64,000 bases of DNA from a virus (Duplodnaviria; Caudoviricetes): the IMG/VR virus record IMGVR_UViG_3300037458_000547, positions 1,474-65,473 of that record; one strand, 5' to 3'. The notes below the pieces were generated by a model. That model made no database searches and was not told the origin of the DNA. It worked only from the letters and a program-made list of their open reading frames with translations. Both the position numbers and the translations under genes were made by a program. This document shows positions 43,834 to 60,786 of this stretch, one piece after another (the stretch's first letter is position 1; each line of letters begins with the position of its first letter).

Positions 43834-44336
43834 GTGAGTACGTTTCGACCGCCCGCGACCTGAAATGCAGAGCCTCGACCGTGCTTCTGGTCAAGCGCAT
43901 GGCCGATCTGCTCGAAAAGCACTACCCGGGGTGGATGTGGTGCGTCCAACCCGACGACCGCGGGGGCGTCATCAACCTGTTTTCGCTGCGGCTGAGCGCA
44001 GAATGGGGCTACCGCTTCCGAATCATGGACATCCAGGGCGATCCGAGGGCCGCGGACCCGAAAATCGTGGCCGCCGGGGGCGAAATTCTCGAGCGTTTCC
44101 GGGTTCCGAGGGGCCTGTACCGCTACGAGGACTGGAAAGAGGCCCCAAAGGACATCGCCGGGCTCGCTCGAGCCGATATTTCCGACAAGAAGGCCAGTAC
44201 GCGGCGATTTCAGCGCGATGAGGCGCTCTCGAACGCCCTGAAGAACGGCATGGCGAAGCTCCAGATCCGCGACACGCCGACGGCGACCGGAACCCACCGC
44301 GAATTGGCCCTGAGACTGGGAGGCAACGATGGCTAA
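43830..44336 (+). CDS. Hypothetical protein upstream of the portal
   Basis: LEKHYPGWMW; AGGEILERF. Confidence 0.7.
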   Translation: MSEYVSTARDLKCRASTVLLVKRMADLLEKHYPGWMWCVQPDDRGGVINLFSLRLSAEWGYRFRIMDIQGDPRAADPKIVAAGGEILERFRVPRGLYRYEDWKEAPKDIAGLARADISDKKASTRRFQRDEALSNALKNGMAKLQIRDTPTATGTHRELALRLGGNDG

Positions 44337-46611
44337 GCAGGACCAGGCGCCCCTGGAGGACGGTCTCGAGGCCGCGCTCGAGGAAGCGGACGAGGGCGGG
44401 TGGATCACGGAGTCGGAGGAGGACCAGCAGTGGGTTCAGAGGTCTCGCGGCGCCTTCGTCGCCTCTGACGAGTGGTTCAACAACTCGATCCGGCGTGACG
44501 TGGAGATGGCGCTGTCCAATTTCCGCTCCAAGCACCCCGCCGGATCGCGCTACAACACCACCTACTACGAGAAGCGGTCGCGCCTGTTCCGCCCCAAGAC
44601 GCGGGCGATGGTGCGCCGCAGCGAAGCGGCGGCCGCCCTGGCGTTCTTCTCGACCGCCGACTGCGTGGCCTGCACGGCCTACAACGACGCCGACCCCAAG
44701 CAGCGCCTGGCCGCGGAGATCCATCAGGCCCTGCTGAACGACCGGATGGAAGATCCGGACATGGCCTGGTTCCTGACCGTGATCGGCGGGGTCCAGGATG
44801 CGCTGACAACGGGCGTGGTCTGCTCACGGCAGACCTGGGAATACCTGTCCGAGACCTTCAGCGGCGACCAGGGCAAGAGCTACGAGGTCGTGCAGCTCGA
44901 CCGCCCCAGCGTTGACCTGATCCCGCTCGAGAACATCCGCATCAGCCCCACCTCGGACTGGCGTCGGCCGATCGAATCGAGCCCATTCGTCATCGAGATG
45001 GTCCCGATGTACGTCTACGAGATCAAGGAGCGGATGAAGCGGCTGGACGCGAATGGCGAGCCGATCTACCGCACGATGCCGGAGGGCATGCTGTACGCGG
45101 CCGTGAAGCAGGACTGGGACTCGATCCGCCGCGCCAGAGAGGGCAACCGGGTCGACAAGTACGATACTGTCAAGAACGTCTCCGATTACGAGACGGTGTG
45201 GGTCCACAAGAACATCATGCGGCGCGGTGGCCGAGACTGGGTGTTCGACACCGTCGGCACCTACCTGATGCTGTCCTCGAGCGTGAAGCCGCTTGAGGAG
45301 GTCTACCATACCGGGCGCCGGCCCTACGCGATGGGCTTCTGTGTCATCGAGACGCATAAGCAGTACCCGAGCAGCCCGGTGATGCTGTCCTCCAACCTGC
45401 AGGAGGAGGCCAACGATCTCGCCAACCTGCGCATCGACAACATCCGCCTGGCGCTGCAGAAGCGGTGGCTGGTCAGGCGCGGCGCCGGCGTGGACACCAA
45501 CTCCCTGATGAGGGGCATCGCCAGCTCGGTCACCTATGCGGCCAACCCGCAGACTGACGTGAAGGAGCTAACCACCAACGACGTGACGCAAAGCTCCTAC
45601 GCGGAGCAGGACCGCATCAATCTCGACTTCGACGAGCTGGTCGGCGCGTTCTCGCAGTCCTCGGTGGCCACCAACCGACACCTGAACCAGACCGTGGGCG
45701 GCATGAACATGCTGTCGGCGGATGCCTCGCAGATCCAGGAATACCAGATCCGCACCGTGGCGGAGACCTGGCTCGAGCCGGTCCTGAAGCAGCTCGTCCA
45801 GCTCGAGTCGGTGTACGAGTCCGACGAGGAGATCCTCAGGAAGGTCGGCGAGCAGCTCGGGGTCAGCGTCGAGGAGATGATGGCGGTCATGCGCGAGCGG
45901 ACCAAGGTCAAGGTGAACGTCGGCTTCAACGCCACCAACCCGGAGAAGCGCATCCAGCGCCTGGCCCTGGGCCTGGCGACGCTCGGCCAGTATTTCCCGC
46001 AGGTCGTCCAGCAGGGCGACACCCGCGAGATCGCCAAGGAGATCTTCGGCGCCCTCGGCTACAAGGACGCCTCGCGCTTCCTGCCGATGCTCAAGCAGCA
46101 GCCCGGCGAGGACCCGCGGATCCAGCAGCTCATGCAGCAGATCGAGCAGCTCACCCAGATGCTGCAGACCAAGCAGCTCGAGAACCAGGCGAAGATCGAC
46201 GTGGCCAACATCAACGCCGAGGCGAAGATCGCGGTCGCCAAGATGCAGGGCGAGATCGAGATGATGAAGCTGCAGTCCGGCAACGACCTCGACCTGCTCA
46301 AGACCAAGCTCAAGGACCGCCTCGAGCAGGTCGATCGCCAGCTCGCCATCGAGGCCCAGGACGTGCGCCGCCGCGAGCTGTACCTGCAGCGCGAGGCGCT
46401 CTCGCACAGCATCCAGCAGGCGGACCGCGAGTACGCGCTCAAGGTCGCCGAGTTCGGCCGCGCCGGCCAGGAAATGGGCGACGAGGAAGACGGCGACGAG
46501 GGGGGCGACGAGGGCGAGGGAGCGGAGGACTTGAAAGGTACTGACAAGGCGGGTACGTTGAGCCGCGGTCAATACGGGTCGGTTCCGCAGATGACAGACG
46601 CGAATGACTGA
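44329..46611 (+). CDS. Portal protein (podovirus/P22-like)
   Basis: 760 aa; FRPKTRAMVR; LQEEANDLANLRIDNIRL; long C-terminal coiled coil; position before scaffold and capsid. Confidence 0.85.
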   Translation: MAKQDQAPLEDGLEAALEEADEGGWITESEEDQQWVQRSRGAFVASDEWFNNSIRRDVEMALSNFRSKHPAGSRYNTTYYEKRSRLFRPKTRAMVRRSEAAAALAFFSTADCVACTAYNDADPKQRLAAEIHQALLNDRMEDPDMAWFLTVIGGVQDALTTGVVCSRQTWEYLSETFSGDQGKSYEVVQLDRPSVDLIPLENIRISPTSDWRRPIESSPFVIEMVPMYVYEIKERMKRLDANGEPIYRTMPEGMLYAAVKQDWDSIRRAREGNRVDKYDTVKNVSDYETVWVHKNIMRRGGRDWVFDTVGTYLMLSSSVKPLEEVYHTGRRPYAMGFCVIETHKQYPSSPVMLSSNLQEEANDLANLRIDNIRLALQKRWLVRRGAGVDTNSLMRGIASSVTYAANPQTDVKELTTNDVTQSSYAEQDRINLDFDELVGAFSQSSVATNRHLNQTVGGMNMLSADASQIQEYQIRTVAETWLEPVLKQLVQLESVYESDEEILRKVGEQLGVSVEEMMAVMRERTKVKVNVGFNATNPEKRIQRLALGLATLGQYFPQVVQQGDTREIAKEIFGALGYKDASRFLPMLKQQPGEDPRIQQLMQQIEQLTQMLQTKQLENQAKIDVANINAEAKIAVAKMQGEIEMMKLQSGNDLDLLKTKLKDRLEQVDRQLAIEAQDVRRRELYLQREALSHSIQQADREYALKVAEFGRAGQEMGDEEDGDEGGDEGEGAEDLKGTDKAGTLSRGQYGSVPQMTDAND

Positions 46612-49975: not shown

Positions 49976-50395
49976 ATGGATCTCGACTTCAGCCGAGCTG
50001 CCCTCGTGTACGGCAGCTCCAGGGCCGCTTATTTCCTGAACGGCCAGTATTACACCGCCGACGGCAAGCCGATTAGCTTCGAGGAGGCCGCTCAGCCTGA
50101 CCCCAAAGACCTCGAGGCCGAGGCGGCCAGACAGGCGGCTACCGAGGCCCTCCCCTCTGTGACGACCATCGCCGCTCCGCCGAAGGCAGAGGAGCCGGTG
50201 GCGATCGTCGATCGGCCAGTCGAGCGGACGACCGAGGTCGACGCCAAGTGGGGTGAAGATCGTCAGCTGAGGCTCAAGACGCTGAGCGGCCACATGCTGG
50301 CCACCATGGTCATGAAGGCCGGCGGCACGCCGGCGACCGGGGTCGGCTCGAAGAAGAAGAACATCTCCTGGCTGCTGGAGAACGTGAAGTCGTGA
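49976..50395 (+). CDS. Hypothetical protein
   Basis: SD GGGAG; Ala/Glu-rich linker. Confidence 0.65.
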   Translation: MDLDFSRAALVYGSSRAAYFLNGQYYTADGKPISFEEAAQPDPKDLEAEAARQAATEALPSVTTIAAPPKAEEPVAIVDRPVERTTEVDAKWGEDRQLRLKTLSGHMLATMVMKAGGTPATGVGSKKKNISWLLENVKS

Positions 50396-51057
50396 ACTTC
50401 CGTCAGCTCTGCCAGGACCTCGTCGAGGAGCTGGGCATCTCCGGCGGCACGGGGCCGAACACGGTCGAGAATCAGACCGGCGAGTACGCGAACGTGGTTC
50501 GCTGGATCGCCGAGTCCTCGCTGTGGATCGACAACCTGTGGCGCGACTGGAAGTACCTGTGGGTCCAGTACGAGACCACCCTGACCGGGCAGAGCATCGC
50601 CACCGGCGCCCGCGAGATCGACCGCTCGAGCGTGTGGATCAACGCCGGGACCTACACGGCCCGGCAGCTCGAGTGGCAGGAGTGGCGACTGATGCGGGAG
50701 ACGCTCAATCGCACTCCGGTCACCGGGACGCCCGTGTACTTCTCGGTGGATCCTGCGGGGACGCTGTTCCTGGATCGGCCGGTCACCAGCCTGCCGATCC
50801 GGCTCGAGTTCTGGAAGCGCCCGACGCGCCTGGTCGCAGACAACGATGAGCCCGATCTCCCGGAGGAGTACCACCGCATCATCATCTGCCGGGCGGCGAT
50901 CATGTACGGCAACCGCGAGGCGGCGGCCGAGGTGATCTCCGGCATGGAGGCCGAGTACATCGACCTCCTCGAGAAGCTGCAGAGCGACCAGCTCGAGCCG
51001 TTCCGGAACGAGCGCATGGCCGGTCAGGACACCCCCCTGTACCTGAGGCACCCGTAA
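50392..51057 (+). CDS. Head-tail adaptor-like protein
   Basis: MNFRQLCQDLVEELG...WRDWKYLW...PDLPEEYHRIII..A; position. Confidence 0.7.
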   Translation: MNFRQLCQDLVEELGISGGTGPNTVENQTGEYANVVRWIAESSLWIDNLWRDWKYLWVQYETTLTGQSIATGAREIDRSSVWINAGTYTARQLEWQEWRLMRETLNRTPVTGTPVYFSVDPAGTLFLDRPVTSLPIRLEFWKRPTRLVADNDEPDLPEEYHRIIICRAAIMYGNREAAAEVISGMEAEYIDLLEKLQSDQLEPFRNERMAGQDTPLYLRHP

Positions 51058-53159
51058 TGGACCTGGTCTCGGCACGCAGGTTCACGAGGAAACTCCCGAA
51101 CCTGGTGTCGGACCGCGACAGCTTCCCGTTCCAGGGCGGGCTGAATCTCGTCGACACCCCGCTACAGGTCAGGCCGGGCCAGCTCATGGCCTGTAAGAAC
51201 TACGAGGTGGCGATGCGCGGCGGGTATGAGCGCATCGAGGGATTCGAGCGGCTCGACGGGCGGCCCAAGCCCTCGGAGGCGCTGTACTGGATCCTGTACT
51301 TCGTCGGCGGCAACTCGAACTACTACCCGGCCCTGGGCGCCACCGTGAATGGCGCGACCAGCGGCGCATCGGGCGTCACGATTTCAACGGCCGATTCGAC
51401 TCAGCCCGAGGGGTATCTCGCGCTGCGCTCTGTGAGCGGCACGTTCATCGACGGTGAGAACGTGCGGGTCGGCGGCACTGCCTTTGGCGTGATCCACGGC
51501 ACGCCTACGGCCAACGACGCCTCGACCGACGAGGAGCATGCGGAGTACCTGCACACAGTCCAGGAGTACGCCAGGGCGCAGATCGAGGCGGTCCCCGGAG
51601 AGGGTCCCGTGCTGGGTGTGGCCGTCTACAACGGCGTCGCCTACGCGATCCGCAACAACCTGGGCTCGTCGGCCGCGATCATGCACAAGGCGACCGCTTC
51701 CGGATGGGAGCCCGTCGCCATGGGCCGACGGCTGGCGTTCGACGCGGGCAACACCGCGCCGGCGATCAACGAGACGATTACCGGCGCCAGCGGCGCGACC
51801 GGAGTGGTGCGCAGGATCGTCATCACCAAGGGCGACTGGGATACGCACGACGCCGAGGGGTACTTCATCCTTTCGGGCGTTACCGGGGCGTTCGTCGACA
51901 ATGACACGCTGACCAGCCCGAGCGGAGCTGCGGTGGCGGTTGGGACGGATACCGCTCAGTCGCTGCCCGCCGGCGGCCGCTATGACTTCCGCGTCCACAA
52001 CTTCTATGGCGAGGATGCCCGGAAGCGGCTCTACGGCGTCAACCAGGTCGGCAAGGCATTCGAGTTCCAGAACACTCCGGAGTTCCTGTGCTTCCTCGAG
52101 ACCGGCACGAGTGATGACCGCCCGACCCACCTGGCGATCCACAAGAATCAGCTGTGGCTCAGCTTCCGCGGCGGCTCGATCCAGAAGTCCGGCACTGGCG
52201 AGCCCTCGGACTGGACCGCCATCACCGGCGCGTTCGAGCTGGCGGTAGGCGACAACGTCACGGGGTTGCTCGAGGAAGTGGGCGGGGCGCTGTTCGCGTT
52301 CTCGCGCAACAGCACCCGCGTCATCACCGGCAATGAGGCGGACGGCTATAGCAACGACAACTTCGGCGTTGAGACTGGCGCCTATGAAGGGTCGATCCAG
52401 CGTTTCGGCCAGGGCTTCTTCATCGACGACCGCGGCTTTACGACGCTCGCGGCCGCCCAGGACTTCGGCAACTTCTCCTCGAACAACGTCTCGGCCCTGA
52501 TCGAGCCGCTGATCCGAGAGCTGAAGAACATGATCGTGACCAGCGTCTCGGCACGATCGAAGAACCGCCTGCGCTACTTCTTCTCGAACGGCCGGGTGAT
52601 CTCGGTCGGGTTCATCGGAAAGAAGATCGGCGGATTCACGACCTGCGACTACGGCATCAGCGTCAAGTGCGCCTTCTCCGGCGAAGACGCGGACGGCAAT
52701 GAGCTGCTGCTGATGGGGTCGGAAACTGGGTACGTCTACCAGGCCGACTCCGGCACCTCGTTCGACGGCGAGCCGATCCAGGCGTTCGCCCGCCTGGTGT
52801 TCCACCACTCCGGGGTGCCGTCGCGCATCAAGCGGTATCGCCTTGCGCACGTCGACCTCTCGACTCGCGGGCCCACCTCGCTTCGCGCCACGGTGGACTA
52901 CTCGAATGCCGATCCGACCTCGAGCTTCGAGCCCGTGAAGGACGTGACCATGACCGGCGGCGGCGGCTTCTGGGACGTGTCGAACTGGAACGAATTTCGC
53001 TGGAGCGCCGGAATCCAGGCCCAGGCCACCTTCAAGCTGGAGGGCTCTGGATATAACATCGGGCTCCTGTTCTCGAGCGAGGCAGCAGATGAGCTGCCGC
53101 ACACGCTGAACGGAGTGACCTTCCATGAGTCGATGCGGCGCCTGAACAGGAGTACCTGA
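51057..53159 (+). CDS. Tail nozzle/stabilisation protein (P22 gp10 or tubular-B-like)
   Basis: 700-aa beta-rich protein; FQGGLNLVD; position after the adaptor. Confidence 0.75.
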   Translation: MDLVSARRFTRKLPNLVSDRDSFPFQGGLNLVDTPLQVRPGQLMACKNYEVAMRGGYERIEGFERLDGRPKPSEALYWILYFVGGNSNYYPALGATVNGATSGASGVTISTADSTQPEGYLALRSVSGTFIDGENVRVGGTAFGVIHGTPTANDASTDEEHAEYLHTVQEYARAQIEAVPGEGPVLGVAVYNGVAYAIRNNLGSSAAIMHKATASGWEPVAMGRRLAFDAGNTAPAINETITGASGATGVVRRIVITKGDWDTHDAEGYFILSGVTGAFVDNDTLTSPSGAAVAVGTDTAQSLPAGGRYDFRVHNFYGEDARKRLYGVNQVGKAFEFQNTPEFLCFLETGTSDDRPTHLAIHKNQLWLSFRGGSIQKSGTGEPSDWTAITGAFELAVGDNVTGLLEEVGGALFAFSRNSTRVITGNEADGYSNDNFGVETGAYEGSIQRFGQGFFIDDRGFTTLAAAQDFGNFSSNNVSALIEPLIRELKNMIVTSVSARSKNRLRYFFSNGRVISVGFIGKKIGGFTTCDYGISVKCAFSGEDADGNELLLMGSETGYVYQADSGTSFDGEPIQAFARLVFHHSGVPSRIKRYRLAHVDLSTRGPTSLRATVDYSNADPTSSFEPVKDVTMTGGGGFWDVSNWNEFRWSAGIQAQATFKLEGSGYNIGLLFSSEAADELPHTLNGVTFHESMRRLNRST

Positions 53160-53896
53160 TGTCGAGCCGTTTCTGGACCTTCGTCGCCAACCTGATCCCG
53201 GGCCAGACAGCCCGATCGGAGCAGGTCAATTCCAAGTTCGCCGAGATCGACGAGGCGCTCGAGAAAGTCGCCCTCGAGATGGACCGGTCGATTCGATTCA
53301 CCTACGGCACGCCCACGGAGGCGACCTACCAAAGCACGTTCAGCGACTCGCAGCGTGCCGGCAAGTCGCTTGGGTTCGACGGGGCGGGCGCCCTGACGAT
53401 CCTCAACGCCGGGTTCGTATGGAAGGGCGACTGGCAGCCCTCGACGTTCTACACGGTCAACGACGTGGTGCGGGCGCCGGCGGCCTACAACTACAGCATC
53501 TACCTCTGCGTCTCCGCGCACACCTCGACCAGCTCGTTCAATCCGTCGAGCTGGTCCGTGATGATCGACCTGACCGAGGCCAGAAAGAGCCTGATCCTGC
53601 ACCAGCTGGTCAACGGCCCGCAGAGCAACTACCCGCTGACCGCCGGCCAGGATGTCATGGTGAACGTGTCGGGCGGGGCGGTGAGTTTCCTGCTGCCTGC
53701 CACGCCGAGCATCAGCGACCAGCCCATCAACATCATGCACGTCGGCGGGGTGATCGGTGATAACCCCATCACCATCAACGGCAACGGCAAGGCGATCATG
53801 GGCCTCAATGAGCCGATGATCGTCGACACGTCGAACGCCAGCTTCGGACTGGCGTTCTGCAACGACGCCCTCGGGTGGCGAATCAGGGGCGTCTGA
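53159..53896 (+). CDS. Tail-fibre anchor protein
   Basis: [12 protein letters not shown] attachment region; [17 protein letters not shown] carbohydrate-binding-type motif. Confidence 0.7.
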
Positions 53897-54579
53897 TGAG
53901 CAACTACCTGCAGTGGCGCTACCGCGGGCCGACAGGTCAGCCCGGCCCCACGGGAATCGCTGGACCCCCGGGGCTGACTGGGGACACGGGACCGGTCGGA
54001 CCCCCGGGCCCAGTTGGCCCCGTGGGGCCTGTCGGAACAGCCGGCCCGCCCGGCCCTCCGGGGCCGACCGGAAACCCCGGGCCCATTGGGCCCTCCGGCC
54101 CCCTGGGCCCCACCGGTCTCACGGGTCCCGTCGGCCCCATCGGCCCGGCAGGATCCATTGGTCCGCCCGGACCCACCGGACCCACCGGTCCCGCCGGAAC
54201 TTCAAACGTCCCCGGTCCGCCGGGGCCCGTCGGTCCTTTCGGACCCACCGGCCCTGCTGGCCCCACCGGCCCTGCTGGTGCGGCGGGCCCCACCGGCCCG
54301 ATCGGCCCCACCGGCCCGGCGGGTCCCATCGGTCCATCCGGCGCAACAGGCGCAACGGGTCCCACGGGACTCACGGGCCCCACTGGGCCCGTCGGCCCGA
54401 CTGGACTCACCGGCCTGACCGGGCTCACCGGACCCACCGGCCCGACGGGTCCTCCGGGGCCCCAGGGCAACCCGGGCCCGATTGGACCTACTGGCCCGAC
54501 GGGCCTCACTGGGCCTCCGGGTCCCACCGGTCCCACCGGCCCGATCGGACCGATCGGCCCAGCGGGTCCGCCCGGGTAA
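53896..54579 (+). CDS. Collagen-like protein 1 (almost entirely Gly-X-Y)
   Basis: Short [10 protein letters not shown] head, then about 70 [12 protein letters not shown] triplets up to the stop. Confidence 0.85.
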
Positions 54580-55572
54580 ATGAGCGTCCTGTCGCAGTTC
54601 GATACCCACGAGGTCGGCGTGATCGGCCCCGTGGGACTGATGGGTCCGCGAGGCCAGCAAGGCCCCACCGGACCCACCGGGGCGATCGGCGTGACGGGCC
54701 CGGAAGGCCCGCAAGGGCCGGGCGAAGACCTCGGCATCGCGGGTCCCGTGGGCCCGGTCGGCCCGCAAGGCCCGCCCGGCCCGACAGGTCCTGTCGGCGT
54801 CCGCGGTCCAACGGGACCCAGGGGCCCCGCTGGCCCCCCAGGAATTGGCCCGGTCGGGCCTGTTGGACCTCCAGGACCTCCGGGTGCGTCACCCCCCGGC
54901 CCCCCTGGACCCACGGGCTCGACTGGGCCTTCTGGCCTCACCGGCCCGCCGGGGCCTGTTGGTCCGTCGCCCGCTGGCCCCGCTGGACCGACGGGGCCCG
55001 CTGGCCCGCCGGGACCGACTGGCCTATCGCCGATAGGCCCGACGGGGCCCACGGGGCTCACCGGGCCTGCTGGCCCGACTGGGCCCCAGGGATTAAGAGG
55101 GCCCACGGGGCTCACCGGTCCAACCGGACCCACCGGCCCGACTGGACTCAGCATGCCTGGTCCTGCAGGCCCAAGAGGACCCACCGGCAGCGTTGGCCCG
55201 GTTGGACCGATAGGTCCTGCCGGCCCCACGGGTCCCATGGGCCCTGCGGGACTCAATCTCACGGTTACCCCGAGCAGCAGCGAGGTGACCAGCTCCGGCA
55301 ACACCGGCGCGAGATACGTTCAGTCGACCGTGTTCTCGGCGTCCGAGACCGGCGGGTTCCCGCCCGTGACCTATTCCTGGCACAGCCTCTCGGCGGGAGC
55401 CGAGTTCCTGAATCCGACCAATGCCTCGTCGCAGATCATCCGCGCCCTGGTGGGCCTGTGGGAGATCTATACCGGCGGGGCGACCTGCACCATCACCGAC
55501 TCGAAGGGCAACCAGTCCTCGGAGAACGTGTCGGTGGTGCTGAGAAACTACGGCGTTGGGCCGCAACCGTAA
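54580..55572 (+). CDS. Collagen-like protein 2 with a C-terminal beta (Ig-like) domain
   Basis: Interrupted Gly-Pro-X runs, then [10 protein letters not shown]...[11 protein letters not shown]. Confidence 0.85.
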
Positions 55573-55584
55573 GAGGGTGACACC

Positions 55585-56217
55585 ATGAGCGAACTTCCGT
55601 ATCCGATCCGCCCCGAGCAACAGGTCTTCCTGCCGACCCATGTCCAGTGGTCAGGCGACAACCGCATGTTCTCGCCCGAGGAGTGCAAGCAGATCATCCG
55701 CGCCGGCGAGGAGCTTGGGCTCGGCTTCGCCATGATCGGCAACGGCGGGAACAACACCGGCATCGTCGACAAGAGCTACCGGTGCGTGAAGTCGACCTCG
55801 CTGTGGAGGCAGAAGAAGCAGGACCTGACCTGGGTCTACGATCGCATCGCCTCGAAGATCGCCTGGGCGAATCGCGACTTCTACCGTTTCGACCTCACCG
55901 GGCTCGGCGAGCCGCCGCAGTTCCTCAAGTACGAGGTCCTCGAGGGCGAGCCGCCGGGGCACTACGACTGGCACCAGGACTTCGGCGGAGGGCTGTCCTC
56001 GAACCGCAAGCTGTCGCTGGTGGTCCAGCTCTCCGATCCTGCGGACTACACGGGCTGCCGCCTGCGTCTGATGGACGGCAAGGAATGGGAGCCCCTGTAT
56101 ATCCAGCAGGGCGACGCCTTGTGCTTCCCGAGCTGGGCGCCGCATCGAGTGACTCCGATCGAGTCCGGGGTGCGCTACGCCCTGGCGGTGTGGATCCACG
56201 GACCCCAGTTCAGATGA
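55585..56217 (+). CDS. 2OG-Fe(II) oxygenase, prolyl-4-hydroxylase/PKHD-like
   Basis: YDWHQD (HxD), RKLSLVVQLSDP..Y.G, FPSWAPHRVTPI.SG.RYALAVW. Confidence 0.92.
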   Translation: MSELPYPIRPEQQVFLPTHVQWSGDNRMFSPEECKQIIRAGEELGLGFAMIGNGGNNTGIVDKSYRCVKSTSLWRQKKQDLTWVYDRIASKIAWANRDFYRFDLTGLGEPPQFLKYEVLEGEPPGHYDWHQDFGGGLSSNRKLSLVVQLSDPADYTGCRLRLMDGKEWEPLYIQQGDALCFPSWAPHRVTPIESGVRYALAVWIHGPQFR

Positions 56218-56229
56218 GGAGAGGCCCGG

Positions 56230-56649
56230 TTGAGTACGTTCATTGACGGCAATCTCGATCGCAGCCGGGCGCTCTATCTGCTGGTGATGCAGGATGCGGC
56301 CTACCGCGGCATGGCGGACAACTGGCCGCGCCCTCGCTGGTGCAAGTTTCGCTCAGACAGCGACCACCTCTTTGTGCTGGCGTGGATGAATCGGGCCTGC
56401 GCGGACAGGTTCTATACCCACTGCGATCCGCGCCGGGTCATTGGCCACTGCGATCGCGTGTGTTGGTCGGACGAGAATTCCGCCAAGTACGCCGCGACCG
56501 ACGAGGAGGCCGTGCGGAGGGCTGGCGAGATCGTCGAATGCCACGAGCCGACGCAAAACGGGCTCGTGCGTGTCACGAAGTTCGCCTTCCGCTCCAACAG
56601 CCCGGACCTGTCGGGCTGGTTCGTGTACGGTGAGTGCCCAGATGAATGA
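56230..56649 (+). CDS. Hypothetical Cys/Trp-rich protein
   Basis: SD GAGGAGAGG; TTG start. Confidence 0.6.
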   Translation: MSTFIDGNLDRSRALYLLVMQDAAYRGMADNWPRPRWCKFRSDSDHLFVLAWMNRACADRFYTHCDPRRVIGHCDRVCWSDENSAKYAATDEEAVRRAGEIVECHEPTQNGLVRVTKFAFRSNSPDLSGWFVYGECPDE

Positions 56650-56965
56650 GAAAGACGACTGGGCCTGGCCCGCCTTGATTCACACCCTTCAGCAGGACAT
56701 CTCGCGGCTTCACGCGGCAGTCGAGACCCTGCGGAACGATCATCAGGCGTCACGCGACCGCTACCAGGCCGAGGTCGCGAGGCTGGTGGATCAGCTTCGC
56801 GCCGTTCAGCAGCAGCTCGAGCCGATCGTGAAGGACAGGTCGGCCACCCAGAATGACCGCCGAGAGATCGGCGTGCGCTGGGCCGAGCGGGCCGGCTGGG
56901 GGCTGCTGCTGGGAGTGGGGTATGCGATCTGGCACTACATCACCAACCATCTGCACGCCAAATGA
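56642..56965 (+). CDS. Coiled-coil protein with a C-terminal TM segment (holin-like candidate)
   Basis: Heptad region followed by WAERAGWGLLLGVGYAIWHYI. Confidence 0.55.
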   Translation: MNEKDDWAWPALIHTLQQDISRLHAAVETLRNDHQASRDRYQAEVARLVDQLRAVQQQLEPIVKDRSATQNDRREIGVRWAERAGWGLLLGVGYAIWHYITNHLHAK

Positions 56966-57159
56966 GCGAGTTCCATGCTGTGCTGCTCTCGGACCACCTG
57001 ATGGACGCCCTCAGGGCGCTCAACGAGGTCCGTGAGATCATGGGGAAGGCCCGCGTCGAGCCGCCGCACTACGCGGCCGTGCTGAACGAGGTGACCCAGG
57101 CCGAGCTGGCCATCGCCCGCGTGATCGGGCTGGTGGCCGGCGCCCCTAGCCACAACTGA
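56962..57159 (+). CDS. Hypothetical protein
   Basis: ATGA coupling. Confidence 0.55.
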   Translation: MSEFHAVLLSDHLMDALRALNEVREIMGKARVEPPHYAAVLNEVTQAELAIARVIGLVAGAPSHN

Positions 57160-57168
57160 GGAGCGAAC

Positions 57169-57354
57169 ATGGCAAAGAGCAAAGAGGAAAAGCAGGCCGA
57201 GAAGGAGCGGAAGGCCCAGATCCGGGCGATCGGCTGGGAGCTGCTCTTTCTGACCGCGATGGCGAGTTCCAAGAAAGAGCGGTGGCAGGTCGTCATCGAG
57301 AAGTGGGACGACTGGAAGCAGGTCCTGATTGAACAGGCTGCCGCCGAATATTGA
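57169..57354 (+). CDS. Hypothetical protein
   Basis: SD GAGGAG. Confidence 0.55.
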   Translation: MAKSKEEKQAEKERKAQIRAIGWELLFLTAMASSKKERWQVVIEKWDDWKQVLIEQAAAEY

Positions 57355-57514
57355 GCTGCAGCTCGAGTCCGTCCGCACGAGGATCGAGCTGCTGCGACTG
57401 GCGTGGCTGCAGACCTGCGAAAAGGAGTGCTTCCCTCCCATAGAGAAGGACCTGGAGATTCTGCAGCGCGAGTTCCAGGATCTCGAAGCGATGGTGCGCG
57501 AGGTGGTACGCTGA
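57329..57514 (+). CDS. Hypothetical helical protein
   Basis: Fills the gap; start uncertain. Confidence 0.4.
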   Translation: MNRLPPNIELQLESVRTRIELLRLAWLQTCEKECFPPIEKDLEILQREFQDLEAMVREVVR

Positions 57515-57535
57515 GCCGCGACGCGGAGAACCGAC

Positions 57536-58873
57536 ATGGCAACGAACCCAGAAGACCTGTTCCAGCTGCCCAAGCCGCCGGACCTCGAGCCGCCCAAGCC
57601 CGCGCAGCAGGAGACGGCGTTGTCCGCCCAGGGGGCGAAGGCGCCGACCACGATCAACCCGGAGATGGCCTCGACGGCTCAGCCGCTGTTCGAGGGCACG
57701 CAGACCGACGCGCCGACACTCGGCATGAGCGCCGCGGCCGCGCCCCCCGCGAGAGCCTCCCTGGTATCGACGGGAGGTACAACCACCGAAGGGCCCTTCT
57801 CGCAAGAAGACCGGACCTTCAGGCCCTACATTTCCCGCGTGGACCAGCCCACCGAGACGGTCGCCGGACAGCTCAAGAGCCTGTTCGACGAGGGCAACCC
57901 GCTACTGGTGCAGGCGCGTCAGCGGGCCAGCGCGGCCGCCGCCGGCCGCGGCCTGCAGAACTCGAGCCTGGCGATGGGCGCCTCGCAGCTCGCGCAGATG
58001 AACGCGGCACTGCCGATCGCCCAGCAGGACGCCGCGACCTACTCGCAGCGGGCGATGCAGAACGCGCAGACCATCAACGATTTCCGCATGGCGGAGATGT
58101 CCTATTACCAGGAGCTGGGCAAGCTCAAAGAGCAGGGCAACATCAACGCCTACCTGACCGGCCTGCAGGCGGGCTACGAGAAGGAGCTGGCCACCCTGAA
58201 CGGCCAGATCACCAAGGAGGTCCACAACCTCGACCACGCCAACAGGCTGATCGAGCAGGCCAAGCAGGGCGACATCGACGCCCAGCTGATGGCCGTGAAG
58301 TATGGCTTCGATTCCAAGCTCTCGGCCGAGGAGAACCTGCATCGCCTGTCGCAGATCGCCGCGCAGGGCGACGTGAACGCCAAGCTGCAACTGCAGCAGT
58401 TCAACTTCGACACGATGCTGAAGGACCAGGAGGGCGGGATCCAGCTCAAGCTCGAGGACAAGCGATTCCAGAACAACCAGAACCTGCTGCTGGTCGAGTA
58501 CCAGCAGCGCGGAATCCTGACCGAGCAGGAAGCCCAGGACGAGATGGAGCGCCTCAACCAGCAGCACCAGAACACGCTCGAGCAGATCGAGGCGCAGGCG
58601 GCCGCCACCTCGGACGTGGCCGACAAGGACCGCTCAGCTCAGCTGCAGGCGCAGTACCTCACGGCCGTCGCGGCCCGCCAAGCCTCGGCCTCGGCTGAGA
58701 TCACCCAGATCTACACCACGCCGAAACTCAGCTCGACGCAGCAGAATACCGGTGTCGCGAACGCCTACTCGCGCCTGGACTCCGACCTCTCGGCGCTGGC
58801 CGCCTACTACGCCCAGAGTCCACTGTGGCCGAGCGGCACAGCCCCATCAGGGGGGGCCGCCGGAAACCCTTGA
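57536..58873 (+). CDS. Ejection/pilot-protein candidate
   Basis: Gln/Ala-rich coiled coil; GRGLQNSSLAMGA motif. Confidence 0.7.
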   Translation: MATNPEDLFQLPKPPDLEPPKPAQQETALSAQGAKAPTTINPEMASTAQPLFEGTQTDAPTLGMSAAAAPPARASLVSTGGTTTEGPFSQEDRTFRPYISRVDQPTETVAGQLKSLFDEGNPLLVQARQRASAAAAGRGLQNSSLAMGASQLAQMNAALPIAQQDAATYSQRAMQNAQTINDFRMAEMSYYQELGKLKEQGNINAYLTGLQAGYEKELATLNGQITKEVHNLDHANRLIEQAKQGDIDAQLMAVKYGFDSKLSAEENLHRLSQIAAQGDVNAKLQLQQFNFDTMLKDQEGGIQLKLEDKRFQNNQNLLLVEYQQRGILTEQEAQDEMERLNQQHQNTLEQIEAQAAATSDVADKDRSAQLQAQYLTAVAARQASASAEITQIYTTPKLSSTQQNTGVANAYSRLDSDLSALAAYYAQSPLWPSGTAPSGGAAGNP

Positions 58874-59364
58874 TGGCCCCCGGCGGGACGGCCGCCGGGG
58901 GCGCAGTCAAGACAGGAGGTGGCGGCCCGAAGATCTCGGTACAGGGCGGACTTCCACCCAAGCCCCCGGCCGTAAAGAGCAGCGAGAACCGCGTGTTCAA
59001 TGACATCGGAAAGTACGCCTCCGGTGGCGTCAACCTTCCGGGGACCGCCGGGCAGCTCGCCGACGTGACGGGCTATGACCCGCTGGGTCTCTTTGGCGGC
59101 GGCTCGACCTACAGCTCAAAGGCGGCGAAAAGAGCGTTCGACCCGCTGGGCGTCGTGACCTCCGACAAGAAGCCGCCGCTGCCGGCCAACATCGACCTGC
59201 AGGCCGGGACGGTCGACGTTGGCGATGGTCGCGAGCGGCTGTCCGAGGAGATGACCGCGTACCTCCGCGGCACGGGGCCGCGCCCGAAGAAGACCGACCG
59301 GAACAGGAAGATCCTGAAGCAGATCGACTCGATGCTCGAGTCCGGGTGGAAGTTCCGTGGATGA
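58873..59364 (+). CDS. Gly-rich putative internal virion protein
   Basis: TGATG coupling. Confidence 0.55.
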   Translation: MAPGGTAAGGAVKTGGGGPKISVQGGLPPKPPAVKSSENRVFNDIGKYASGGVNLPGTAGQLADVTGYDPLGLFGGGSTYSSKAAKRAFDPLGVVTSDKKPPLPANIDLQAGTVDVGDGRERLSEEMTAYLRGTGPRPKKTDRNRKILKQIDSMLESGWKFRG

Positions 59365-59840
59365 TCCGCAAGGGGCGCATAGATGACTTCCCCCGGTTCT
59401 GGGAACTCGGCAAGCGACTCCTGGAGCAGACGCCCTACTCGAGGATGGAGATTGATCGCGCCAGCGTTTCCAAGGCGTTCGGTCACTGCGTCAACAGCGC
59501 CCTCGGCTGTTGTTTCGTGGCCGAGCATGGTGGCACACTCACCGGCGTCATCCTGGGAGTGGCCCAGGACCTGTGGTGGTCGCGAAGCAGGAGTGCTTCG
59601 GACCTGATCTTCTACGCCGAAACGCCCGGCGATGGAGCCAAGCTCCTGCGGGCCTTCGAGCGATGGGCATGGAGCGTTCCTCGGGTCGGCGACGTGACGG
59701 TCGCGCAATCCAGCGGGATCGACGTGGACCGAACGGAGGCTCTCTACCGGCGCCATGGATTCAGGAGGGTCGGAGCGGTCTATGTGAAAACGAGGAGCGA
59801 CCATGAGCGGCGTAGTGAAGGGCATCAAGAAGGTCTTTAA
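59361..59840 (+). CDS. GNAT-family acetyltransferase-like protein
   Basis: MIRKG..DD...; FVAEHGGTLTG; KLLRAFERWA; EALYRRHGF. Confidence 0.8.
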   Translation: MIRKGRIDDFPRFWELGKRLLEQTPYSRMEIDRASVSKAFGHCVNSALGCCFVAEHGGTLTGVILGVAQDLWWSRSRSASDLIFYAETPGDGAKLLRAFERWAWSVPRVGDVTVAQSSGIDVDRTEALYRRHGFRRVGAVYVKTRSDHERRSEGHQEGL

Positions 59841-60786
59841 GTCCGTCGTCAACGTCGTCAAGAAGATCTGGAAGCCGCTCCTCATCGCGGCCGCGGTCTA
59901 CTTCACCGCCGGCCTGGCTCTCTCGGCTTTCGCCCCCACCGCAGCATTCGCCGCCTCCATGCCAGGCTTCGCCGGAGGAGGACTGGCCGGAGCTGGAATT
60001 GGCGCCGGCGCGACCGCCGGCACCGGTGTCTTCTCGCAGGCCGCGGCCGCGATGGGCATGGGCTCGCTCGGTTCGGCGGGCGGCCTCGCGGGCGGCGCCC
60101 TTGCGGCGGGCTCCGGCGGCCTCGGGATCTCTGGCGTAGCCGGGGCAACCGCCGCCCAGCTCTCGGCCGCCGGTTTCTCGAGCGCGGCGATCGGCGAAGG
60201 CATCGGCGCTGTCGCGGGCGGTGCCTACGGGGCGGCCGCAGGTTCCGCGGCCACGCTGGCCTCGACCAGCTCGCCCTCGCTCGTCAGCGGCGCACTGGGC
60301 TCGGGCTCGGCGGGCGCCGGCGCTCCTGTTGGAGCTGGCACGGTGCTTGGGCCTGGGGCTGGCGCCGCGCCGGCAGGCACCGGGACTGTCCTGGCCGGAT
60401 CGACTGGAGCTGCCACTGCCCCAACGGGGGCCGCGGCCGGCCTGACGCTCGGCGAGAAGATCCTGTTGGCCTCGAGCGGCACGCAGGCGCTCGGGGCGCT
60501 GATGCAGCCGAACCCCGAGGAGGCCAAGCGGTGGCAGGGCGCCTTCTACGGCACCACCTACAAAGGCGGCGGGCCGGGGCCGATCCCGGGCCCCGGGATG
60601 GAGCCGACTCCGCCCGAGAGCGAGGCGGCCAAGAAGCCGAAGGAGTCCGAGAAGCCCTCCCTGTTCGCGAGCAACATCCGGGCATCGCAGGTCGAGCAGC
60701 CCTCCCAGGGCAAGCAGAAGCCCATGGCGCCGGCCGGCGACCTGTTCCCGCGCCAGAATGCCAAGGTGAGGTACGTCAATGCCTAA
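59803..60786 (+). CDS. Ala/Gly-rich membrane-active ejection-protein candidate
   Basis: Basic KKVFKSVVNVVKK start, then long hydrophobic GxxxG-rich segments. Confidence 0.7.
   Translation: MSGVVKGIKKVFKSVVNVVKKIWKPLLIAAAVYFTAGLALSAFAPTAAFAASMPGFAGGGLAGAGIGAGATAGTGVFSQAAAAMGMGSLGSAGGLAGGALAAGSGGLGISGVAGATAAQLSAAGFSSAAIGEGIGAVAGGAYGAAAGSAATLASTSSPSLVSGALGSGSAGAGAPVGAGTVLGPGAGAAPAGTGTVLAGSTGAATAPTGAAAGLTLGEKILLASSGTQALGALMQPNPEEAKRWQGAFYGTTYKGGGPGPIPGPGMEPTPPESEAAKKPKESEKPSLFASNIRASQVEQPSQGKQKPMAPAGDLFPRQNAKVRYVNA

Follow-up and report, generated by a model that had tools for sequence, protein, structure and literature searches.

The subject of this work is a group of genes within a 64,000-nucleotide (nt) stretch of DNA (hereafter the window; positions 1,474 to 65,473 of the IMG/VR virus record IMGVR_UViG_3300037458_000547) from a virus of the Caudoviricetes, in which two genes for collagen-like fibre proteins (col1 and col2) are followed directly by a gene for an Fe(II)/2-oxoglutarate (2OG) oxygenase. 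Based on the gene order in this phage and its relatives, and on the modelled fold of the enzyme, we consider it probable that the phage hydroxylates proline residues of its own collagen fibre; as part of the same reading, the stretch 53159-56217, which also carries the gene for a fibre base protein (p245), would form one late-operon fibre module. Self-hydroxylation had already been proposed by a first-pass annotation of this DNA, which saw in the adjacency of the genes the only link between enzyme and collagen. To that link we can add the prolyl-hydroxylase fold of the enzyme, the presence of collagen genes beside the oxygenase in its clade (14/14 informative loci), the joint presence and absence of both genes in related phages, and a family-wide association with glycine-rich proteins, although it is still from synteny and fold that we infer the activity itself.

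Both collagen open reading frames (ORFs) score well above the Pfam Collagen (PF01391) cut-off of 27.2 bits (col1, 2.3e-33 and 114.2 bits; col2, 5e-24 and 84.3 bits), and they match the PHROG tail-fibre families phrog_5073, phrog_6320 and phrog_819 at 1e-33 to 1e-46 (for phrog_5073, 2.9e-46 with col1 and 1e-46 with col2). The col1 product has 71 Gly-X-Y triplets with a single interruption (runs of 31 and 40) and no globular domain; Pro occupies 53 of the 71 X positions, and the Y positions hold 29 Thr, 12 Pro, 9 Ala, 8 Ile and 7 Val. In col2, 66 triplets are distributed over 7 runs, with Pro in 49 of the X positions and 21 Thr, 9 Val, 8 Ala and 7 Pro in Y, so that the Pro share of X across both chains is about 75%, while X-Pro-Gly sites are few (only 13 in col1 and 10 in col2). 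These ORFs, coordinates and triplet counts agree with the Gly-Pro-X composition described in the first-pass annotation. The col1 chain contains neither Lys nor Glu, and stabilisation by salt bridges is therefore unavailable to it. The col2 chain ends in a domain of about 100 amino acids (aa; roughly 55246-55569) with a PKD/Ig-like look, which can be aligned over five diverged loci (pattern TGG...Y.W...NP..SSQ...VTD..GN) and for which an Atlas search returned PKD-like leads only (scores 0.83-0.88). By a strict Gly-X-Y criterion, the rest of the window holds no further collagen ORF.

The oxygenase gene begins (ATG, 55585) 12 nt after the col2 stop codon (TAA, 55570-55572), with a GAGGG ribosome site in between. 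Residues 113-205 of its product match PF13640 (2OG-FeII_Oxy_3) at 51.5 bits (cut-off 27), the protein matches phrog_61 at 1e-25, and no signal peptide is found on it. The HxD...H...R motif, already noted as intact in the first-pass annotation, corresponds to H130, D132, H187 and R197, all invariant in alignments of 32 and of 42 homologues, and the invariance of the predicted iron- and 2OG-binding residues across 42 diverged homologues indicates selection for catalysis. Arg197 lies 10 positions past H187, and its equivalence to the 2OG-binding residue of collagen prolyl 4-hydroxylases (P4Hs) is assumed.

An AlphaFold2 model of the oxygenase (predicted local distance difference test, pLDDT, 93; predicted template modelling score, pTM, 0.88) has a double-stranded beta-helix fold that VIA-align superposes on many solved 2OG prolyl hydroxylases with Z of 17-21 over 164-181 residues. 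The Z scores are 21.2 for PPHD, 20.4 for TaPHD (Trichoplax), 19.6 for PHD2, 19.2 for CrP4H (Chlamydomonas), 17.9 for vCPH of PBCV-1, 17.1 for PiuC and 16.8 for OGFOD1; the 50 VIA-align entries listed are mostly protein prolyl hydroxylases, PiuC and Sbal_3634 being the exceptions (Foldseek was also used). By sequence, PiuC and Sbal_3634 are the closest solved proteins (E 2e-9 with a profile of the enzyme's clade), followed by the P4H of PBCV-1 (1.3e-3), the animal prolyl 3-hydroxylase (P3H) P3H1 (5e-3), the algal CrP4H (8e-3) and the P4H of B. anthracis (0.08), with all the collagen-type matches weak and partial. No PHD2 or PPHD chain appeared at E <= 1 in phmmer and profile searches of the PDB, which leaves a distant kinship possible. 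Scores against the NCBIfam PiuC/YbiX equivalogs (NF003972-NF003975) fall below the cut-offs (at best 47 vs 143 for NF003974, and 26 vs 399 for YbiX). The description as prolyl-hydroxylase-like is therefore well supported by the model at the level of the fold, but not at the level of any one characterised subfamily.

In order to see whether enzyme and collagen go together in other phages, as the first-pass annotation had suggested surveying, we anchored a survey of relatives on the 700-aa tail protein encoded upstream (p700), fetching 35 IMG/VR loci with homologues at 29-58% identity. Eight distinct loci (the window included) have both collagen and oxygenase genes, eight have neither over at least 5.8 kb downstream (two more are readable over only 2.5-3.7 kb), and none has one without the other; loci which retain the N-terminal anchor of p245 joined to a non-collagen fibre are missing the oxygenase too. 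Since the loci with both genes form one clade of the tail-protein tree (support 99), this co-occurrence represents one or two events, not eight. At the base of that clade, in an unresolved position, stands a locus free of collagen and enzyme (L105, IMG/VR 3300010430_000035), which has neither p245 nor collagen genes nor the oxygenase; this joint absence suggests an exchange of the entire fibre module in one piece.

A broader view comes from a tree of 160 oxygenase homologues taken from phages and metagenomes (the synteny counts cover IMG/VR and JGI metagenome contigs; many close homologues also occur on Logan/ENA contigs). The window enzyme falls inside an 18-row clade (support 100), and a Pro-type collagen ORF lies at most 2 kb upstream, on the same strand, in 14/14 rows with readable upstream DNA (in the remaining four the contig ends before that region), often at a distance of 12-90 nt. 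In three lineages (L005/L104, L093 and L116) the oxygenase gene even sits between collagen genes, and the complete module is repeated in a 62-kb contig binned with a Burkholderiales metagenome-assembled genome. Two other clades of the same family have repeat-protein partners of their own: the members of one (24 rows) are found just downstream of large fibre proteins made of Gly-Asn-Pro/Ala repeats, and those of the other, a marine clade of tandem arrays (52 rows), are followed about 1.1 kb downstream by a glycine-rich protein of 330-450 aa. If Gly-rich neighbours are defined as ORFs on the same strand and within 3 kb that reach 150 aa or more and contain a 120-aa stretch of no less than 30% Gly, one is present at 14/15 informative loci of the window's clade, 19/22 of the Gly-Asn-Pro clade, 45/49 of the marine clade and 19/66 of the remaining rows, against 2/582 ORFs in 332 kb of control loci from unrelated queries, where no Gly-X-Y ORF occurs at all; these clade-level counts are not phylogenetically independent. 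Each of these three enzyme clades is paired with its own type of repeat protein, and the pattern therefore fits the prediction of an enzyme-substrate relationship. Pro is the sole residue besides Gly that is common to the Pro-type and Gly-Asn-Pro-type partner proteins, Asn being about as frequent as Pro in the latter.

In the mechanism that we propose, the two collagen chains, encoded next to the fibre base protein, would build a slender triple-helical fibre that terminates in a small Ig/PKD-like tip. The oxygenase would be a dedicated cytoplasmic prolyl hydroxylase, expressed from the late operon alongside the fibre proteins. Proline in new, unfolded collagen chains would be hydroxylated using O2 and 2OG ahead of trimer zipping (with ring position 3 or 4, and Pro in X or in Y, as candidate sites), and the modification would stabilise, or else tune, a triple helix nearly devoid of charged residues and made up mostly of Gly-Pro-Thr triplets. 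Bann and Bachinger reportedly observed, in 2000, that Gly-Hyp-Thr repeats gain helix stability from 4-hydroxyproline at position X. Without modification, Ac-(Gly-Pro-Thr)10-NH2 is reported to form a random coil (PMC11923368) and, because col1 is also without charged pairs, a stabilising modification is plausible. Pfam scans of the 19 larger window ORFs detected no glycosyltransferase or other modifying enzyme. A wider reading, which we put forward tentatively and with less confidence than self-hydroxylation in this one phage, is that phages have a collagen-maturation chemistry of their own: a dedicated clade of enzymes would turn the X-position Pro of Gly-Pro-Thr-rich fibres into hydroxyproline, making fibre stability dependent on oxygen, iron and 2OG, and sister clades would do likewise for Gly-Asn-Pro fibres and for marine glycine-rich virion proteins.

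Several observations weigh against self-hydroxylation of the fibre. The state with both collagen and oxygenase is confined to a single tail-module clade and could be inherited gene order; the nearest solved sequences (PiuC/YbiX and Sbal_3634) have no known substrates, and PPHD, the top structural match, hydroxylates EF-Tu and not collagen. Collagen P4Hs bind 2OG by a Lys, where the family studied here has Arg197, and the classical collagen P4H targets Pro in Y, whereas the Pro of the phage chains is mostly in X. Members of the family are also found away from fibres: 47/66 of the remaining loci have no Gly-rich neighbour, and the family is not exclusively fibre-linked, because the copy of Roseobacter phage CRP-810 sits among replication genes. 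Finally, several bacterial and prophage collagens are stable without hydroxyproline (PMC11923368), so that a need for the modification is not established.

As an alternative, the oxygenase might act on a host protein, for example EF-Tu, like Pseudomonas PPHD, or a ribosomal protein, like OGFOD1/Tpa1, as a moron at the end of the late operon serving host takeover. In the structural comparison PPHD, solved as a complex with EF-Tu, comes first, OGFOD1 is matched too, phrog_61 is categorised as "auxiliary metabolic gene / host takeover", and copies such as that of CRP-810 lie away from structural genes. We nevertheless regard host takeover as unlikely: at the level of sequence, the profile detects P4H and P3H of the collagen type and not PPHD or PHD2 at E <= 1, every informative clade member has its oxygenase beside collagen genes (or between them, in three lineages), the enzyme is lost along with those genes, and a place in the late operon fits a structural role better than an early takeover. 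Less likely again is a modification of the fibre at residues other than proline, that is, oxidation of Thr, Val, Ile or Asn, or creation of a site for host-encoded glycosylation. The same synteny supports it, 2OG oxygenases are chemically versatile, and sister clades adjoin the Asn-rich Gly-Asn-Pro/Ala repeats; against it, all structural neighbours with a known substrate are prolyl hydroxylases, and only Pro, besides Gly, is common to both types of partner protein. Lysyl hydroxylation, for its part, is excluded for col1, because this chain has no Lys.

We rate lower still a role in small-molecule or iron metabolism like that of the cellular PiuC/YbiX, with the collagen linkage being an inherited order devoid of functional meaning. 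Such a role would agree with PiuC and Sbal_3634 as the closest solved sequences, with the ties of PiuC/YbiX genes (whose substrate is not known) to TonB receptors and iron homeostasis, and with the single origin of the paired state in the tail-module tree. On the other side stand the NCBIfam scores, far under their cut-offs, and the fact that separate clades of the family are each linked to a glycine-rich repeat protein of another type, which is hard to obtain by inheritance alone. That the enzyme is catalytically idle, serving as an assembly chaperone of the fibre or as a minor virion component, would suit its location within a structural operon, but the invariance of the iron and 2OG residues across the 42 diverged homologues makes this very improbable.

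Among the closest known systems is vCPH of PBCV-1 (PDB 5c5t), likewise a small, single-domain viral enzyme with the 2OG prolyl-hydroxylase fold (superposed over 164 residues) from a virus that, like the window phage, also encodes Pro-rich repeat proteins. The two systems differ in that PBCV-1 is a virus of eukaryotes, the vCPH gene is not beside a fibre gene, the identity between both enzymes is only about 21%, and vCPH binds 2OG by Lys where the phage enzyme has Arg197; moreover, the vCPH substrates tested (by Eriksson, 1999) are said to have been repeats of the PAPK type and not Gly-X-Y collagen. Animal collagen P4H and P3H (P3H1, PDB 8k0e, has the weak profile similarity given above) share the proposed logic, in which Pro is hydroxylated in unfolded Gly-X-Y chains before the helix forms, and the X position that holds most of the Pro in the phage collagens is that of P3H rather than of P4H. 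Unlike these animal enzymes, the phage protein has no peptide-substrate-binding domain, no protein disulphide isomerase subunit and no endoplasmic reticulum to work in, and it measures 210 aa instead of more than 500. PPHD of P. putida (PDB 4iw3; root-mean-square deviation 2.6 A over 179 residues) resembles it in having a single domain of bacterial size with Arg as the 2OG-binding residue; on the other hand, neither PPHD nor the HIF hydroxylases have a sequence-profile relation to it at E <= 1, and PPHD is the product of a cellular gene, acts on a translation factor and has no link to collagen genes. With PiuC/YbiX and Sbal_3634 the phage enzyme has the C-terminal half of the fold in common, including the distal His and the Arg, but it scores far below the equivalog cut-offs, and the PiuC/YbiX genes have TonB-dependent receptor genes as neighbours.

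Mimivirus, too, is known to have collagen-modifying enzymes. On the basis of gene neighbourhoods, Iyer, Abhiman, de Souza and Aravind (2010) predicted that some bacterial 2OG dioxygenases have collagen-like or tail-collar proteins, encoded alongside, as their targets, an argument like ours in taking a glycine-rich tripeptide-repeat protein as the substrate of the neighbouring dioxygenase; unlike us, they assigned the dioxygenase arrays of cyanophages to secondary metabolism and not to virion collagen (PMC2938197). In our full-text literature searches, no paper came up in which a collagen-like tail fibre is tied to a 2OG oxygenase of a phage. What is already known, then, is a viral prolyl hydroxylase with a repeat-protein substrate of its own, in the chloroviruses; what would be new here is the bacteriophage, the true Gly-Pro-X collagen fibre and the dedicated clade of enzymes.

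Hydroxyproline is regarded as a hallmark of animal collagen and collagens of bacteria and phages are, to our knowledge, generally said to lack it. Bacteria are stated to lack prolyl hydroxylase (PMC11923368), and P4H is counted among the abundant viral auxiliary genes, with a use by viruses that, according to a study of the Baltic virome, "remains cryptic" (PMC9301287). A clade consistently paired with genes for Pro-rich collagen fibres offers that question a concrete and cheaply testable substrate. If self-hydroxylation is correct, collagen hydroxylation exists in viruses of prokaryotes, and a phage gene family that is very common would be explained in part. The wider reading would also account for the long-cryptic "P4H / 2OG-Fe(II) oxygenase" auxiliary genes that abound in viromes. 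Fibre assembly, and hence infectivity, would depend on the oxygen, iron and 2OG of the host, and compact enzymes might become available with which bacteria could produce recombinant collagens in hydroxylated form.

Three other settings of the oxygenase family came to light in the survey. In the cultured, T4-like Stenotrophomonas phage vB_SmaS-DLP_6 (KU682439.2; L125:4968-10606), the stop codon of an oxygenase homologue (AAY80_072) abuts a very large tail-fibre gene (AAY80_073) with at least five short collagen-like segments, and this phage is a usable laboratory system for the question of fibre hydroxylation. On marine IMG/VR contigs (L012-L084; e.g. L045:3667-7051), three 2OG oxygenases stand in tandem arrays (PF13759, PF13640, PF13640), and the Gly-rich protein that comes after them has GNPGN/GNAGN repeats and a conserved end (...PG.SYP..VG..GG.V.ISW.PQ). 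Cellular genomes of Novosphingobium (L227:2976-9235, from sp. PhB57, and 15 further loci among L221-L249) encode an oxygenase of PF13640 that shares 30-34% identity with the one of the phage, in the order ShlB/FhaC-type two-partner-secretion transporter, oxygenase, ParB-like helix-turn-helix gene and collagen lipoprotein; the latter, 1.3-4 kb downstream on the same strand, has a long Gly-Pro-Ser/Thr collagen region (Pfam Collagen 5e-11). In this arrangement, culturable hosts may have a cellular equivalent of what is paired in the phage.

The features discussed here are collected in the following table, and the adaptor gene at the start of the tail module is found upstream in relatives too.

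Table. Features of the window, with coordinates counted from its first nucleotide.
Feature	Coordinates	Strand	Basis and remarks
Polyvalent protein, 3,709 aa	2-11131		Pfam AAA_34/Strawberry-notch helicase, LPD1, LPD38; no N4-type RNA polymerase
SU10-type portal	44329-46611		Pfam
SU10-type head-to-tail adaptor	50392-51057	+	PF24175 SU10_adaptor, 4.6e-14; start of tail module
p700, tail/nozzle-type protein, 700 aa	51057-53159	+	Homologues in 35 IMG/VR loci
p245, fibre base/anchor protein, 245 aa	53159-53896	+	PHROG tail and tail-fibre families, residues 150-243
col1, near-pure collagen chain, 227 aa	53896-54579	+	Pfam Collagen, PHROG tail fibre
col2, collagen chain with C-terminal domain, 330 aa	54580-55572	+	Pfam Collagen, PHROG tail fibre
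Fe(II)/2OG oxygenase, prolyl-hydroxylase fold, 210 aa	55585-56217	+	PF13640, AlphaFold2 model
PAS-like protein, 139 aa	56230-56649	+	AlphaFold2 model and Foldseek; outside the collagen-oxygenase module

In cultured podophages, the homologues of p700 carry the annotation of head-closure or stabilisation protein. The p245 gene lies directly upstream of collagen genes also in L002-L005, L009, L093, L116, L122 and L212, and its stop codon overlaps the start of col1 (TGATG). A -1 frameshift fusing p245 to col1 was considered and rejected, the junction in relatives being an ordinary overlapping stop and start (TGATG or ATGA). Between col1 and col2 (54577-54582), which are in the same frame, there is only a TAA followed immediately by an ATG, an arrangement also found in L003 and L005. 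Fusion of the two chains by stop-codon readthrough was likewise discarded as unlikely, because L002 and L212 have the two genes in separate frames and the arrangement is therefore not conserved.

Other long ORFs compete for the collagen region, on the other plus frame (53913-55580) and on the minus strand (53937-55304, Gly-Pro-rich), and third-position GC does not discriminate between these frames and strands. The plus frames that we chose for col1 and col2 are supported by the operon context, by the MSNY-type, non-repeat N-terminus of col1, which is kept in relatives, and by the conserved C-terminal domain of col2. The antisense ORF (455 aa) and the other-frame ORF (555 aa, Arg-rich) are by-products of the GGN-CCN-NNN codon pattern, which gene callers could mis-annotate.

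The virus record has a length of 65,473 bp, nearly all of it inside the window, with a G+C content of 64-72%, and is rated complete by CheckV. A first guess at an N4-like phage, made from the 3,709-aa ORF, was ruled out by the polyvalent-protein and SU10-type portal matches in Pfam. Judged by its genes, the virus is podophage-like with a SU10-type head-tail connector, because Pfam shows a polyvalent protein together with a portal and an adaptor of the SU10 type. Measured on the 700-aa tail protein, identity to the closest cultured relatives is only about 31%. A blastn search with the region gave as its sole match 7% to a minor tail gene of a Streptomyces phage, and tblastn of col2 against cultured phages gave none, because the low-complexity filter masks the collagen part and the tip domain has no cultured relative. 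An Rfam scan of 50000-60000 returned nothing, and a scan for promoters and terminators gave no signal exceeding chance.

The gene following the oxygenase, described in the first-pass annotation as a Cys/Trp-rich ORF and proposed there as a folding or modification partner, is real and conserved (its product contains 7 Cys along with 6 Trp and has 55 homologues, 49-99% identical), but the proposed partnership has to be abandoned. Although the protein has no Pfam or PHROG match, its AlphaFold2 model (pLDDT 89.6) leads Foldseek to stand-alone LOV/PAS domains (template modelling score about 0.55). None of the collagen-oxygenase relatives compared by BLAST has the gene, the contigs that carry its homologues at 66-69% identity show neither collagen nor oxygenase within 7 kb, and in L129 a homologue comes directly after a non-collagen tail-fibre gene. 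Four small genes in all (56230-57351) lie between the oxygenase and a conserved downstream gene of 445 aa, namely those for the PAS-like protein, for a coiled-coil protein (within 56441-56965) whose C-terminal part has a hydrophobic segment, and for two ORFs of 65 and 61 aa. In several collagen-oxygenase relatives, the 445-aa gene is about 2-4 kb from the enzyme (250 nt in L212), and the genes of 139, 174 and 65 aa co-occur in unrelated phage contigs (L126-L129). The block 56230-57351 has the look of an insertion, specific to this lineage, that separates the fibre module from the conserved genes downstream.

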